Assembly: GCA_965248435.1 (NCBI GenBank)
Contig: OZ252100.1
Location: 5,568,001-5,632,000 of the forward strand
DNA: 64,000 nt
Direction of reading: 5' to 3'
DNA from: Candidatus Latescibacterota bacterium
Lineage (GTDB): Bacteria; Latescibacterota; UBA2968; GCA-2709665
Part shown: positions 28,268 through 52,337 of the stretch, in pieces
How positions within the stretch are numbered: the stretch's first letter is position 1
How the letters are laid out: the number at the start of each line of letters is the position of its first letter
The notes under the pieces: generated by a model
What the model was told of the DNA's origin: nothing
Seen by the model: the letters and a program-made list of their open reading frames with translations, nothing else
The model's database searches: none
Program-made: the position numbers and the translations under genes

Positions 28268-28281
28268 GAAAGCTTTATAAA
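28268..28281 (+). promoter_or_regulatory. Archaeal-type BRE-TATA promoter candidate
   Basis: GAAAGC-TTTATAAA, 22 nt before ATG 28304. Confidence 0.55.
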
Positions 28282-28303
28282 TACTCAGATGTCTCCTTGG
28301 AGG

Positions 28304-29569
28304 ATGAAAAAGCCAAGTTTAGGCAGAAGAATAAAGAGGACCTTGAAGGAGACAGGTTACGGATTATTACTTAGTGGTCTATTAAGTATGCCTCCTCAAG
28401 CCAGTCCACATCCTAGTCCTTCAACAAGAAAAGCTTCTAAGGGTGTTGTAGATGGAGATTTTTACATTATATCTGAAGGAGAGCCAAATCCCGATTTCGA
28501 TGGAAATGGAAAAGTAGACTTCCTTGATTTTGTAGGATTTGCACAAGCTTTTGACTCTAGACCCACAGACCTTGATTGGGATGTTAGATATGATTTGAAT
28601 GAGGATAGTGAAGTTGGATTCTTTGACTTTCTAGAATTTACAAAGGCTTTCGGCAAAGACATTGAGATAAGAGAAAACGCTCCGCAGATAGCTGAGATTC
28701 CTCTACAAGAAATACCTCAAGTTGAATCTGTCGTAAATCCTGTAACTCTAGACCTCTCACAATATGTCTCAAATCAAGATAGTAATTTAGTCTATGAAAT
28801 AGTTGGCAGTAATGGTTTGGTTACGCAGCTAAAAGACTCAGTTCTAACATACAGACCTAGAGGACTCTTTAATAAAGAAGATAATGGTTTGGCTAAGGTT
28901 GCGTTTAGAGTTAGGAAAGGAGATCTAGAAAGCAATCTGGGAGAACTAGATGTTGAGATTGAGAGAAATGGTGATTTTATTTATGAATACAACACTCTCT
29001 TCCCGGACATACAAGAAGGTCTCAAATCTCCGATTAAAGTGGCTTACCTATGGGCTGGCCCTATAAGAACAGATCCTAGTGAATGGAATCCAAGTAAATG
29101 GGATGGTCCTTTGACTTCTGAAGAAGACCTTGCAAATGCAGAGAAAGGAATAAAACGACTCCATATCCTAACAAGCGGGTTTATTTCTAAAGACATTGAA
29201 GTTATTAGAGGCACAGATCATACTAGGATTTATGATGAATTTACAGATGATATTATATCTCCGCCTGAAGAGATGCACTGGTATGTGAATGAGAGTTTCC
29301 CAGGCAAAGGGGCGGCCTATAACAATAGGAGAGATGATAGAAATTACACCTCAGCAGGCTACTATACAAAGCCAGGAGTAGAGCTCTCAACCCATCTACA
29401 CGAGTGTTATCATATAGCAACCTCTGGAGCACATTCAGAAAACGATGAAGACTTGCTTTCAGCAGGAGCTACTCCAGGGATAACCGAATATTCACCAATG
29501 CATATTGCGTTGGTAACTGCAAACATAGATGAAAGACTCAAAGCAGGTCTAGCTAGGGCTGAACCTTAG
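28304..29569 (+). CDS. Secreted EF-hand/dockerin-like protein with Ig-like and zincin (HExxH) domains
   Basis: DFDGNGKVDFLDF and DLNEDSEVGFFDF repeats; HECYHIATSGAHS. Confidence 0.75.
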   Translation: MKKPSLGRRIKRTLKETGYGLLLSGLLSMPPQASPHPSPSTRKASKGVVDGDFYIISEGEPNPDFDGNGKVDFLDFVGFAQAFDSRPTDLDWDVRYDLNEDSEVGFFDFLEFTKAFGKDIEIRENAPQIAEIPLQEIPQVESVVNPVTLDLSQYVSNQDSNLVYEIVGSNGLVTQLKDSVLTYRPRGLFNKEDNGLAKVAFRVRKGDLESNLGELDVEIERNGDFIYEYNTLFPDIQEGLKSPIKVAYLWAGPIRTDPSEWNPSKWDGPLTSEEDLANAEKGIKRLHILTSGFISKDIEVIRGTDHTRIYDEFTDDIISPPEEMHWYVNESFPGKGAAYNNRRDDRNYTSAGYYTKPGVELSTHLHECYHIATSGAHSENDEDLLSAGATPGITEYSPMHIALVTANIDERLKAGLARAEP

Positions 29570-31414
29570 TTAGGTTCCGTATGTCTCTGGCTTAACTAAA
29601 ATAACTTGATCGGTTTTGCCAAGAGCATTTGTCTTTAAACAAATCTGCTGAGCAGCCCAACAATCAAGAGTTTTGCCTCCAACTCTAAAGGGATTTCTCT
29701 TAATTTTGTTAATGTCATATTCTCTTCCTGCATAAAAGAATTTTCCACCCTGCTTTTGCTCAATAGGACAATCGCATTTAGTTATTTTTTCTTTACCTTC
29801 AACACATCTTCTTCCATTCCAAACTTGCTGTCCAACAAGACAACAAGCTGCTGTTCTATCTGTAGCATAACTGCAATACAAATTCTCATTTCTCTGCCCT
29901 GGCAAAGCACTAGAAGAGAAGTAAGAACATTCATTATTAGTAGTGCAGGTTTTCTCTCTTAAAGAACCTTGACAAGTAGCGACTAAAAATCCTCTTTTCT
30001 TTTGAGCACCACAAGGATTTCCGCAATTAGCTTCATTGAAAACAATACTCAACTTAGGTGGATCTCTACCTGCACTAGTTACTACTGGCTTTCCTACTGG
30101 ACCAAATTCAAAACCCTTACTGCAACTGCTCGATGCTTTATTCTCACAATAGTAGATAGCCTTGTATTGCCCTATAACCTCACCTCCACAATTAACAGTA
30201 GCCCTTTCTCCTCCAGCTACTTCATCAACATTCATTTGACTATCATCAGGCACTTTGACAAAACCAAATGCTTCAAGCTGTTGGGCAGTAGGAGTAACTA
30301 ACTTCCATCCAAATTCAATTGAAGCACCTCCACCTTGCTCAAAATACTCTACTTGAATTGTATGTTTTCCAGCTTGCAGACTAGTGTCAGCACTATTTGT
30401 AGAAATTCTTCTAAGACCGTGCAAGCCCCAATTGTCCACAATTTTTTTCCTAGACCCATCAGGATAGATAAGATAGAGCCTTGAGCCATCATCACTATTA
30501 GTCCAGAATTCAAACTGGCCCGAGGTAAAATCAAATCTGCCAGCATACTTTACAGAAAATTGATCAGCCCCAACATTAGTAGCTTGAGGAGGAGCACCTA
30601 TGCCCCAACCTTTTGAAAACTTTCTCTCATCTCCTTGTCCTGAACTTGCTAAATCAGATGTTCTAACACTAAGCCTGAAATTATCGAAGTTTACACCATC
30701 ATAATAATTGGCGGTAAACAAATTGTCTCTCACTTGGGGAAAGCCAGGATCAGCAGCTAGCTTAGGAGCACTAGGAGTTACAGCTTGTGGAGTTGGTGCT
30801 GGAGCTCTTGTAGGAAGTGCGCATCTCGGCGGAGCTATTGTTCTTACTTCCTCGGTTTTTCTATTCTGAGTTATTCGCACATTACATCTCTGAGACTTAG
30901 CCCTAGTGTCACAAAAGAAATCAGAATACCTCTCCCATTTTTGTTCTTGGCATTGGCCTATGTTTCTCCAATTAGGTTTCCATCCATCACCAGCATTGCA
31001 ATTCCTCCCCCAGCAATTAGTATCTGTTTGTCCCTGGGTAACAGTCTTTACTAATCCTGTAAATCCTTGTTGTTGGAAAGCAACCTCGGCTTGTTTCTGC
31101 GTCACTTCAACTCTAGGAGCTGGCTTGCATCCATTACTACCACATCCAAAATTGCACCTACGAACAGTAGTCTTTTTTCTATTACCCCGGCAGGAGTAGT
31201 CTATAAAGGAATTCCTTCCGCAGTAATCTTTCTTGTAATAACTCTTACTCCCAACTCTGTATTTAACATTCCCGCTTTTGTATTCCTTACAATATGGAGA
31301 CAGAGAAGAGGAGAAGGCAGAGGAAAGAGAAGCAGTAAGGTGTCTTGACTCACTCTCTGGGATAATAGCAAAGACAAAAACTACCAACACCAAAAGGAAA
31401 ATTATCTTTCTCAT
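29570..31414 (-). CDS. Cys-rich secreted protein with PA14 domain
   Basis: Signal peptide; D.FSV.Y.G.F.F..G...F...SDDGSRL....VDNW..H...G.H.I.VEYFE..G.A (PA14); C.FGC...GC modules; start overlaps the upstream stop (ATGA). Confidence 0.8.
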   Translation of the reverse strand: MRKIIFLLVLVVFVFAIIPESESRHLTASLSSAFSSSLSPYCKEYKSGNVKYRVGSKSYYKKDYCGRNSFIDYSCRGNRKKTTVRRCNFGCGSNGCKPAPRVEVTQKQAEVAFQQQGFTGLVKTVTQGQTDTNCWGRNCNAGDGWKPNWRNIGQCQEQKWERYSDFFCDTRAKSQRCNVRITQNRKTEEVRTIAPPRCALPTRAPAPTPQAVTPSAPKLAADPGFPQVRDNLFTANYYDGVNFDNFRLSVRTSDLASSGQGDERKFSKGWGIGAPPQATNVGADQFSVKYAGRFDFTSGQFEFWTNSDDGSRLYLIYPDGSRKKIVDNWGLHGLRRISTNSADTSLQAGKHTIQVEYFEQGGGASIEFGWKLVTPTAQQLEAFGFVKVPDDSQMNVDEVAGGERATVNCGGEVIGQYKAIYYCENKASSSCSKGFEFGPVGKPVVTSAGRDPPKLSIVFNEANCGNPCGAQKKRGFLVATCQGSLREKTCTTNNECSYFSSSALPGQRNENLYCSYATDRTAACCLVGQQVWNGRRCVEGKEKITKCDCPIEQKQGGKFFYAGREYDINKIKRNPFRVGGKTLDCWAAQQICLKTNALGKTDQVILVKPETYGT

Positions 31415-31857
31415 TCTAGCTCCTGGCAAACCTTTCTTAACTCGGCATCAGCAATTTGATTACAAAAACCTAAATCATCAGTCTCAATAGCTTGGTTAAA
31501 ATAATAATCATCAAGGCAATCCTGTCTCAGCTCTTGCTCTAATTCGTCACACAAGCTTGCATCAGCCAAAGCATTCTCCACTACAGATTCTTCAAATCCT
31601 ATGACAAATGCGGCTTCACAACTCTCTCTAACTCTAGGATCTGTAATTAGATTGCAAATACTACTATCATCGTTATCTAGAGCCTGCTGCAAGTAGAAGT
31701 CGTCCAAACACTCACCCCTCTTATGCAAGTTAGGAATATTCTCACATTCACCAATATCAGTAATGAGTTTTTCAATCTTTTCCTGTTCACACCCAGCACC
31801 TATGAGAAATACAAGACTTAGAATTACAAATATCACCTTCTCTTTGTTATGAAACAT
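31411..31857 (-). CDS. Secreted protein with C-x2-I-x6-C repeats
   Basis: CENIPNLHKRGEC, CNLITDPRVRESC, CDELEQELRQDC, CNQIADAELRKVC; N-terminal hydrophobic segment ending GAGC. Confidence 0.75.
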   Translation of the reverse strand: MFHNKEKVIFVILSLVFLIGAGCEQEKIEKLITDIGECENIPNLHKRGECLDDFYLQQALDNDDSSICNLITDPRVRESCEAAFVIGFEESVVENALADASLCDELEQELRQDCLDDYYFNQAIETDDLGFCNQIADAELRKVCQELE

Positions 31858-51772: not shown

Positions 51773-51817
51773 GAACCATCAAAAATGGAGAGGTCTCCTG
51801 ACTAGAACAATAGAAAA

Positions 51818-52024
51818 ATGGTAAATCTAAATCAGAAATCAGGGTCAGTGATCAGAGTCCCAAATCGTGAGAAAAGTGAGGCAACAGGGAGCAATTCCCT
51901 GACGGCAGTGCTTAACCATCAACTCAGATCCATCGAAGACGAGGTCGGGAGACTAACGGCAAAGAGGGAGCAATTTCTTAGGATGATGCGTGAAATCAGG
52001 TTGAGAATCAATTCCCTTCACTAA
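51818..52024 (+). CDS. Small coiled-coil protein
   Basis: 68-aa ORF with heptad pattern. Confidence 0.5.
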   Translation: MVNLNQKSGSVIRVPNREKSEATGSNSLTAVLNHQLRSIEDEVGRLTAKREQFLRMMREIRLRINSLH

Positions 52025-52064
52025 CCCTAACCAAATCCAAAGCTATATAAAGGAGCAAGGTGCT

Positions 52065-52337
52065 GTGGAATCCGTGATTGAAATGGCAGAAGAAAGAGAA
52101 GTTCCACCAAACACATCTTATGCAATCCGGTTCCACAAAGAAGATAGAGGTAGGGGCATCTCCAGACTGATTGGCTATGGATCAGGGAGTTTTGGAGGAA
52201 CAGAGAATGGAATTCTATTGGTTCCCTACAAAGACTTAAAGTGCCTAGATGATGCAGGCATCAGATATGAAAGCTGTGAATTAGGAATGATGACGACCGA
52301 GGAAATTGAAGAAAGACTAGAGCCTAATTGGGAATAA
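52065..52337 (+). CDS. Hypothetical protein
   Basis: 90-aa ORF; preceded by AAAGCTATATAAAGGAG (TATA-like and SD-like). Confidence 0.6.
   Translation: MESVIEMAEEREVPPNTSYAIRFHKEDRGRGISRLIGYGSGSFGGTENGILLVPYKDLKCLDDAGIRYESCELGMMTTEEIEERLEPNWE

Follow-up and report, generated by a model that had tools for sequence, protein, structure and literature searches.

Candidate DPANN archaeal DNA in a mosaic low-GC island beside tRNA-Glu(CTC) of a Latescibacterota bacterium

The 64,000-nucleotide stretch of DNA analyzed here, hereafter the window, spans positions 5568001-5632000 of C1, the 5.66-Mb contig of a two-contig assembly (5.67 Mb in total) from a Candidatus Latescibacterota bacterium. Nearly all of it appears to be a composite island of low G+C content (GC) next to a tRNA-Glu(CTC) gene. 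Inside the island lies a putative recombination module, consisting of a tyrosine integrase with a zinc ribbon and a HerA/FtsK-like ATPase, accompanied by a few cargo genes; both the relatives and the promoter architecture of this set seem to point to DPANN archaea or to mobile elements living in them. We consider it somewhat probable that DNA of DPANN archaea, or of an archaeal element, is embedded in a bacterial mosaic island beside this tRNA gene. The direct basis for this reading is composition, repeats, insertion sequence (IS) insertions, family distributions, phylogenetic trees, and promoter statistics. We infer that the DNA moved from archaeon to bacterium and that the integrase and ATPase formerly served in integration and DNA transfer.

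The events may be pictured as follows. DPANN-type DNA, comprising the integrase, probably the ATPase, a gene for a 212-residue protein, and a few further genes with a B recognition element and TATA box (BRE/TATA), would have entered a bacterial lineage and recombined there with bacterial cargo, including genes for an HU-receiver fusion (HU-REC), an AraC protein, an RND pump, RadC, a DUF6876 protein, and a serine recombinase. The island would then have been duplicated or acquired twice, giving the copy in the window (island A) and a second one in the same chromosome (island B). Island A now seems to be decaying in place, its ATPase gene split by an IS3 element and a receiver gene by an IS30 element. 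About five genes would still keep BRE/TATA elements 30-34 nucleotides before the start codon without a Shine-Dalgarno sequence, as their DPANN relatives do, and the bacterium perhaps reads these boxes as -10-like elements. A preliminary description of this DNA had proposed an element that acquired DNA from, or shuttles through, Woesearchaeota/Pacearchaeota-like archaea; the DPANN-type integrase, the gene for the 212-residue protein, and a few promoters favor the first part of that proposal, but active shuttling seems improbable.

Mobile elements are thought to be largely confined to a single domain, with promoters, replication, and integration targets all differing between archaea and bacteria. 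Here, an integrase common in DPANN archaea and at least one DPANN-type gene with an archaeal-style promoter are lodged in a bacterial chromosome, a rare trace, if the origin is correct, of mobile DNA crossing between the two domains. In a full-text literature search we met neither the zinc-ribbon integrase family nor any case of archaeal promoters within a bacterial island. If such transfers are real and repeated, they would constitute a concrete vehicle for gene flow between archaea and bacteria, would raise the question of which cells DPANN archaea touch, and would provide a natural test of archaeal TATA promoter function in a bacterium.

Integrase, ATPase, and a cargo gene with archaeal relatives

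The integrase gene (43355-44668, minus strand) encodes 437 residues with a C-terminal CxxC...CxxC zinc ribbon, as recognized from Pfam and alignment. The protein passes Pfam model PF00589 (Phage_integrase) narrowly, with 29.6 bits against a cut-off of 27.1 over residues 166-324. In an alignment of ten sequences R193, K221, R291, W313, and Y322 are invariant, and from their spacing, which is as in Cre, we take these to be the catalytic positions. Database searches found 111 relatives, most of them listed with PF00589, the closest non-self sequence having 49% identity. Organism names are available for eight: one is simply "bacterium", and the other seven are archaeal (three entries of "archaeon" and single ones of Aenigmarchaeota, Woesearchaeota, Nanoarchaeota, and Nanoarchaeia). 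Species-representative genomes contain 77 integrase loci, 61 archaeal-labeled (mostly Woesearchaeota and Nanoarchaeota) and 16 bacterial-labeled. The latter come from metagenome-assembled genomes (MAGs) of Smithella, Acidobacteria, Thermodesulfobacteriota, Omnitrophota, Planctomycetota, Verrucomicrobiota, Patescibacteria, Hyphomicrobiales, and others, and several lie on contigs of 100-400 kb. A profile for the family finds members in 25 of 301 genomes of a DPANN phylum sample (three of them seeds, and one being genome G286); the 167 other genomes of the host's phylum and 40 close relatives that were searched yielded none. No relative was found in 72,556 plasmids, 50,697 phages, or the IMG/VR viral contigs. 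The initial impression that the integrase looks archaeal is therefore upheld in the sense of a DPANN-dominated family. "Archaeal" describes its frequency, not its exclusivity, because bacteria also have established members of the family, with the GC of their own genomes and linked to a HerA-like ATPase.

In a 67-row integrase tree the bacterial-labeled rows are scattered, so that at least five to eight changes of domain label are needed. Both host copies join a Woesearchaeota row (Shimodaira-Hasegawa-like approximate likelihood ratio support 97) on long branches. Forcing all 16 bacterial rows into one clade costs 144 log-likelihood units and is rejected by the approximately unbiased test (p = 8.7e-5).

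A tRNA gene on the same strand ends about 60-310 nucleotides upstream of the integrase at 13 of 29 archaeal-labeled loci scanned and at 0 of 11 bacterial-labeled loci, an arrangement that, judged from gene order, is as expected of an element integrated at a tRNA 3' end. With a Phage_integrase-fold gene directly downstream of a tRNA, and with archaeal BRE/TATA promoters, these DPANN contigs resemble the tRNA-targeting integrated elements covered in parts of a 2021 review of archaeal tyrosine recombinases (PMC8371274), the available text of which contains neither "DPANN" nor "zinc". The family described here differs from those elements in its C-terminal zinc ribbon and in a gene that is intact after integration, and the window integrase differs further in residing in a bacterial chromosome, 17 kb from the tRNA and without recognizable attachment (att) repeats. 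An integrase of the partitioning SSV type was ruled out, the 437-residue open reading frame (ORF) being single and intact in the integrated state, in the host and at the other loci alike.

The gene for the 212-residue protein (38034-38672, minus strand) belongs to no Pfam family. It has full-length homologues with 30-37% identity in 14 of 281 DPANN genomes, and none in 167 other genomes of the host's phylum or in plasmids. The N-terminus MSLESLL..DEQ.LRQY is common to the DPANN homologues, and five of the twelve inspected have a clear TATA box about 30-33 nucleotides before the ATG, as does the window copy. This shared layout is the strongest single sign that a gene in the island may have arrived with its archaeal promoter. 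In the ESM Atlas, which yielded low-score leads only, the protein led to viral or bacterial clusters at scores of at most 0.79.

The HerA/FtsK-like (DUF87) ATPase gene lies on the plus strand in two parts, an N-terminal one (39189-40553) and a C-terminal one (41774-42658), interrupted by an IS3-family element; its paralogue in island B is intact, with 731 residues. PF01935 scores 41.7 bits on the window part and 37.2 bits on the intact copy, and the Walker A region is present. Weaker matches to FtsK_SpoIIIE, TraG P-loop, and TrwB models fall over the P-loop, and an extra domain of about 200 residues forms the C-terminus. The family occurs in 72 of 301 genomes of the DPANN sample at E<=1e-5, and in 26 of them, as ORFs of 590-770 residues, at E<=1e-26. 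At two DPANN loci (L090 and L094) the C-terminal domain matches too, and a distant tyrosine integrase is nearby. Plasmid collections gave three matches only, all in haloarchaeal plasmids, and in the ATPase tree archaeal and bacterial rows are intermixed. The preliminary description had treated this ATPase as an archaeal gene, which agrees with its DPANN and haloarchaeal plasmid relatives but not with a family present in both domains. Around 15 DPANN HerA-like genes and 12 DPANN homologues of the 212-residue protein, we found no wider synteny with the island apart from isolated cases: distant integrases at L090 and L094, a ThiF homologue at L095, and, again at L090, genes for a serine recombinase and a winged-helix protein.

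The ATPase lies within 1-9 kb of the integrase in both host islands. By analogy, a tyrosine integrase together with a single ATPase of the FtsK/HerA superfamily at a tRNA-associated site suggests transfer of double-stranded DNA that would need no type IV secretion system. We identified no Rep protein. We considered and set aside an integrative and conjugative element: a Pfam scan of about 70 window ORFs, covering those of about 85 residues and longer except some overlapping ones, found no relaxase or type IV secretion family above threshold.

TATA-like boxes before island genes

Over the whole window TATA-like octamers are in modest excess (10 occurrences of TTTAWATA against 4.5 expected, and 16 of WTTATAWA against 8.3), and their position relative to start codons was therefore tested. 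As a positive control, archaeal-labeled integrase loci show a sharp peak of TATA-like octamers starting 29-31 nucleotides before the start codon; host genes show none. A BRE+TATA weight matrix was trained on 201 DPANN genes, in which an A-rich BRE (M-R-A-A-A) at -7 to -3 precedes TTTAWATA. Boxes starting 27-34 nucleotides from candidate start codons were scored, and 8 bits or more counted as a pass.

Five island-A genes pass. The highest score, 15.9 bits, belongs to the BRE/TATA-like site AGAAAGC TTTATAAA (28274-28281, plus strand), where the box starts 30 and ends 22 nucleotides before ATG 28304 of a 421-residue, secreted-looking orphan protein (28304-29569, plus strand). It is followed by AAAAGGA TTTAAATA (50733-50740, plus strand; 14.5 bits), starting 31 nucleotides, with a 23-nucleotide gap, before ATG 50764 (scored as 50764/50767) of a 161-residue orphan (50764-51249, plus strand). 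Third is TTTATATA (31883-31890, minus strand; 13.6 bits), starting 33 nucleotides, with a 25-nucleotide gap, before ATG 31857 of a 148-residue Cys-rich repeat protein (31411-31857, minus strand). The repeat module of that protein matches proteins in 7 of 65 DPANN genomes. The box of the 212-residue protein gene, ATTATATAAA (38696-38705, minus strand; 10.5 bits), starts 31-33 nucleotides, with a 23-nucleotide gap, before ATG 38672. The fifth, TATATAAA (52044-52051, plus strand), scores 9.2 bits relative to GTG 52074 and is ambiguous, as AAGGAG with GTG 52065 can also be read as an ordinary ribosome-binding site. A further box, again TTTATAAA (45287-45294, minus strand), starts 30 nucleotides, with a 22-nucleotide gap, before the ATG of a 44-residue ORF, which opens a series of three short ORFs upstream of the integrase gene. 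The integrase's own TATA-like box, TTTTAAAA, starts 31 nucleotides before its ATG and is weak (3.4 bits). The boxes before 28304 and 31857 are conserved, spacing included, at the island-B orthologues.

The preliminary description had listed eight TATA/BRE sites. The octamers at 28274, 31883, 38696, 45287, 50733, and 52044 are indeed present, and five sites fit the DPANN-trained model at DPANN spacing. The sites at 44692 and 39151 reach only 3.4 and 0.8 bits, respectively, and the box at 45287, although present, precedes just the 44-residue ORF. A putative archaeal layout, BRE/TATA without a Shine-Dalgarno sequence, is found at 28304, 31857, 38672, and 50764, is ambiguous at 52065/52074, and is not found at 44668 or 39189; the start codons behind the boxes mostly lack a Shine-Dalgarno sequence, as had been claimed.

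By the same scoring, 223 of 926 genes in the DPANN training loci and 45 of 305 genes in independent DPANN loci pass, compared with 4 of 589 host genes. Island A has 5 passing genes among 80 and island B has 3 among 58; the respective internal-codon controls give 0 of 59 and 0 of 44. When nine spacing windows were compared, island matches peaked at 27-34 nucleotides (at 10 bits, three plus three there against zero or one elsewhere), and the DPANN positive control peaked in the same window, with 215 of 982 genes. For a comparison with stricter start choices, each upstream 60 nucleotides was given 300 dinucleotide shuffles. Island A then had three matches observed against a shuffle mean of 0.25, a count reached by 1 of 300 shuffles at 8 bits and by 0 of 300 at 10 bits; island B likewise had three against a mean of 0.25, reached by 0 of 300 at 8 bits. 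TATA boxes at this spacing are thus commoner than in shuffled AT-rich DNA. The boxes are real, and the signal is confined to a small minority of genes.

A sigma-70 scan found no -35 hexamer partner for the TATA boxes. Neither sigma-70-like sites (26 against 29.5 in shuffles) nor terminators (15 against 17.5) were enriched. The top sigma-70-like site in the scanned region, TTGACA-18-TATATT at 32985-33014, lies upstream of the HU-REC gene (33067-33795, plus strand), in which an HU domain (Bac_DNA_binding) is fused to a receiver domain, and for this gene the interleaving of bacterial genes under sigma-70 control, proposed earlier, is confirmed. Shine-Dalgarno cores precede 48% of host genes, compared with 23% in a control window, an enrichment barely visible for the island genes (34% against 27% and 33% against 33%).

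We also observed a conserved ATGCG-containing motif about 15 nucleotides upstream of the integrase TATA box, about 45-50 nucleotides before the ATG, at both archaeal- and bacterial-labeled loci (L009-L011, L012, L028, L035, L036, L046, L049, L053, and L065). This motif may serve as an operator or as an arm-type binding site.

The composite island and competing explanations

The host is a bacterium: its single small-subunit and single large-subunit rRNA genes each score best with bacterial Rfam models. Whole-genome GC is 56.6%. Most 2-kb bins of the window have a GC of 40-47%, the exceptions being a patch at 16-22 kb, the two IS elements (34.5-35.5 kb for IS30 and 40.5-41.8 kb for IS3), and the last 2 kb. 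The low-GC mosaic tract (window 1-61405, about 40-47% GC) starts about 4 kb before the window, at C1 ~5,564,000, and runs for about 65 kb to the 3' end of tRNA-Glu(CTC). ARAGORN places this gene at 61406-61481 on the minus strand, with its 3' end toward the island, and finds only one other tRNA in the window, tRNA-Arg at 62012-62088. A large serine recombinase gene (Resolvase, Recombinase, and Zn_ribbon_recom domains; 59856-61499, plus strand) occupies the tRNA-proximal end of the tract. The preliminary description had drawn a 24-kb island at 28-52 kb; that interval is merely the middle of a larger mosaic, because the low-GC tract begins ahead of the window and extends as far as tRNA-Glu at 61406. 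The last 20 nucleotides of tRNA-Glu(CTC) (61406-61425) recur as direct repeats at C1:5530877 and C1:5532674, and these delimit a 98.5-kb composite island in which low GC starts right at the tRNA. The composite thus abuts a tRNA 3' end and carries direct repeats of that end, as a tRNA-associated genomic island should. GC is about 52% in its outer ~30 kb, the segment between the outer repeats and the low-GC tract (L110, C1:5528001-5548000, and L111). Encoded there are a D5-type primase-helicase (DUF3854 + D5_N + DUF5906), a UvrD helicase, a DNA methylase, and a sigma-54 activator-type ATPase, and the segment looks like a separate integrated element in tandem. The same 16-20-nucleotide tRNA-Glu 3'-end sequence occurs twice (C1:1126353 and 1131156) near tRNA-Glu(TTC) at C1:1132953-1133027, which suggests small tandem islands there too.

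Island B is a second low-GC tract at C1 1.19-1.25 Mb, syntenic in inverted order with window positions 15-47 kb. Protein identity between the islands is 40% for the integrase, 50-55% for the ATPase and RadC, and 64-97% in the block at 25.9-36.9 kb. In island B an intact integrase gene lies directly upstream of the intact ATPase gene. A second bacterial instance is found in a Thermodesulfobacteriota MAG (L019), where GC falls from 64-69% to 38-49% right after tRNA-Gln/tRNA-Glu(CTC). Its layout (L019:5574-21185) is that of the window, with a high-GC flank, the tRNAs, and a low-GC island carrying a zinc-ribbon integrase and two HerA-like genes. Contig L171, a low-GC metagenome sequence, has a zinc-ribbon integrase behind an archaeal-type tRNA-Glu(CTC). 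No core is common to the 3' ends of bacterial and archaeal tRNA-Glu at integrase loci, and we therefore propose no common att site.

Residence of the island in the bacterial chromosome is indicated by its IS elements. The IS3-family element (40551-41800, minus strand; ORFs 40581-41426 and 41423-41791) splits the HerA-like ORF cleanly, is flanked by a 3-bp target duplication, AAG, and has 5 further chromosomal copies at 99.7-100% identity. For the IS30-family element (34491-35560, minus strand), which lies within a receiver-domain gene, the genome holds 30 other copies of at least 1,031 bp at 97.6-99.7% identity. Both the GC-rich IS3 insertion in the HerA-like gene and the use of the two elements as an argument for chromosomal residence, put forward in the preliminary description, hold up well on these data. 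A solo fragment of about 77 nucleotides at 12195-12271, about 90% identical to one IS30 end, is a relic of an older IS30 insertion; it had been placed outside the island but falls inside the low-GC tract.

Public data bearing the island comprise four runs of one metagenomic sample, available as Logan assemblies, and include no RNA run; the four runs are probably the source sample and so do not give independent support. A Logan contig of 19,662 bp spans from the IS3 edge (41771) into the tRNA (61432). Coverage across the junctions gives a divided answer. In the four runs the depth of the island contig (11.4, 17, 36.2, and 34) is similar to that of a flanking host contig of about 40 kb (9.77, 13, 45.3, and 38.2). 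On the other side, the short-read graph stops inside tRNA-Glu, so that Logan contigs do not bridge it, and the tRNA-Glu unitig is 3-4 times deeper, with other sequences attached (loose ends at 61400-61406). A chimeric assembly is unlikely given the IS insertions, the depth, the two embedded islands, and the host-like, high-GC RND pump gene in both, with the tRNA junction itself as the weak point.

Among competing explanations for the archaeal features, the one that survives best, a possible but not a likely one in our view, is an ordinary bacterial island from a low-GC bacterium. The integrase and ATPase families would then simply be two-domain families, and the boxes AT-rich -10-type or element-specific promoters with short leaders. 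The TATA box does resemble TATAAT. Linkage of the ATPase to the integrase, within 1-9 kb, is seen in 10 of 16 bacterial-labeled loci and in 0 of 55 archaeal-labeled ones. The genes for a RadC-like JAB protein (46371-46871, plus strand) and a DUF6876 protein (47164-47583, plus strand) recur beside the integrase at some bacterial-labeled loci, and DUF6876 occurs in just 1 of 301 DPANN genomes. Several bacterial-labeled integrase copies stand at their host's own GC, 52-60%. From this linkage and these copies it follows that the integrase-ATPase element is established in bacteria too, and the donor could be a low-GC bacterium. Boxes of at least 8 bits at about 30 nucleotides precede the integrase in 4 of 14 bacterial-labeled loci, against 14 of 49 archaeal-labeled ones, and also in a metagenome contig of 59% GC (L152). 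Their persistence fits a bacterial function; the loci could be recent arrivals, or the box could serve bacteria as well. With a HerA-like gene and an ORF 45491 homologue near its integrase, L112 (46% identity, 33% GC), the closest integrase relative for which gene context is available, has almost no archaeal-type promoters (one weak case in 18 genes).

Several other observations weigh against a DPANN origin. Taxon labels are those of MAG records, some possibly misbinned, and four of the bacterial-labeled contigs are only 2-7 kb long. The promoter is found in only about 5 of 80 island genes, compared with 15-24% of genes in DPANN loci. Behind the best promoter stands an orphan (28304) with five database relatives, two of them the host's own copies, and the protein at 50764 has no match in 65 DPANN genomes. 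The host ATPase clade has only unlabeled close kin. No att repeats flank the integrase, a search of 22-62 kb having given only short, imperfect direct-repeat pairs, and a BLAST comparison of both host integrase upstream regions with those of 23 loci found no common tRNA fragment or att core. Most island genes assigned by Pfam are bacterial in type or universal (HU, AraC HTH_18, AcrB, RadC, DUF6876, and glycosyltransferases). An archaeal origin of the whole tract is further opposed by its receiver domains, M48 peptidase, ThiF-like enzyme, tRNA-adjoining serine recombinase, and polysaccharide gene set at 0-14 kb.

A purely bacterial island accounts poorly for other results. The boxes have no -35 partner and are mostly without a Shine-Dalgarno sequence; their A-rich, BRE-like flank and their spacing match the DPANN model, with a single peak among the spacing windows. 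The N-terminus of the 212-residue protein and, in several cases, its promoter layout are shared with DPANN homologues, and the gene is absent from the other sampled genomes of the host's phylum. The integrase has no match in the plasmid and phage collections, and its bacterial rows are scattered among DPANN rows. On this evidence we prefer DPANN DNA embedded in a bacterial mosaic.

That the element still shuttles between DPANN archaea and bacteria, the integrase and HerA/FtsK-like translocase being a minimal transferable unit active in both domains, we regard as improbable. The repeated changes of domain label on the integrase tree, the rejection of one bacterial clade, and the intact integrase and ATPase side by side in island B would fit such a unit. 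So would a 78.8-kb public contig, separate from the assembly, where an ATPase with 91% identity and a relative of the 28304 protein with 85% identity are encoded, and the low-GC islands beside tRNA-Glu(CTC) in two unrelated bacterial assemblies. Speaking against it, neither an excised or circular form nor an att pair turned up, the island-A ATPase is broken by IS3, and identity to any DPANN protein is only 30-49%, so that no recent transfer is documented. The lack of a common core in bacterial and archaeal tRNA-Glu 3' ends, and of relaxase and type IV secretion families among the ORFs scanned, argues in the same direction.

A broader proposal we put forward only tentatively. The zinc-ribbon integrase and HerA/FtsK-like translocase may represent an undescribed family of integrative elements that has moved repeatedly between DPANN archaea and scattered bacteria, with TATA promoters readable in both domains, as a TBP/TFB site in one and as a -10-like element in the other. 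If such repeated movement does occur, DPANN cells and bacteria would have to be in direct physical contact, perhaps as hosts and symbionts. Related cases are on record. Archaeal integrons, proposed to move genes between domains (PMC9668308), likewise involve a tyrosine-recombinase system common to archaea and bacteria; unlike them, the window integrase marks a whole island, not gene cassettes. A groundwater metagenome preprint (bioRxiv 10.64898/2026.05.20.726742) reports cross-domain protein clusters among Nanobdellota (DPANN), Omnitrophota, and Patescibacteriota, located on DPANN and bacterial chromosomes and small mobile elements; the trees mix archaeal with bacterial leaves. Omnitrophota and Patescibacteria are also among the bacterial-labeled integrase loci here. 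The main text of the preprint, as far as it is available, names no zinc-ribbon integrase/HerA module and no archaeal promoters in bacterial DNA, though its supplements might list the family.

An assembly chimera, with DPANN contigs joined to the bacterial chromosome through shared repeats (tRNA, IS), draws on the metagenomic source runs and the graph break in tRNA-Glu where other sequences attach, but is very improbable in view of the clean IS3 duplication in one low-GC ORF and the IS30 in another, both with near-identical copies in the high-GC chromosome, the two separate islands each embedded in the 5.66-Mb contig, the host-like RND pump gene within both, the similar depth of island and host contigs across the four runs, and the interleaved genes of bacterial type. 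A prophage was rejected, no phage family having appeared in the window Pfam scans. An integron was rejected as well, since no cassette array was recognized, although attC sites and IntI-type insertion were not searched for.

Further genes and fragments in the tract

Three domain assignments of the preliminary description, AbrB repeats in ORF 45491, a ribbon-helix-helix (RHH) protein at 44853-45011, and an outer-membrane barrel at 26454, received no Pfam support; an RHH-like helix does occur at the end of the last of the three short ORFs upstream of the integrase. A 619-residue PA14 protein gave weak N-terminal matches only, in 9 of 301 DPANN genomes, and its low-score ESM Atlas lead was to PA14 clusters of Chloroflexota/Planctomycetota at 0.78. 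Paralogues of HU-REC occur in island B (C1 ~1,221,000-1,231,300), and both islands contain a cluster of single-domain receiver genes, the window copy at 34153-34512 being truncated by IS30.

The AcrB-type RND pump gene (15317-18475, plus strand), of high GC, has a paralogue in island B with 65% amino acid identity, and its nucleotide identity to a chromosomal copy at 2.17 Mb is 73%. Adjoining it, at 18638-18685, is a 48-bp stretch that matches part of tRNA-Val(TAC) (C1:2872698-2872745) at 97.9% identity, possibly the scar of another integration. Downstream of the RadC (JAB) gene, a ThiF/E1-like enzyme (54294-55694) is encoded among small ORFs without a known family and a winged-helix protein (53796-59382). 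The ThiF homologue of the DPANN locus L095 is 28% identical to it. This region could be a ubiquitin-like conjugation or defense module.

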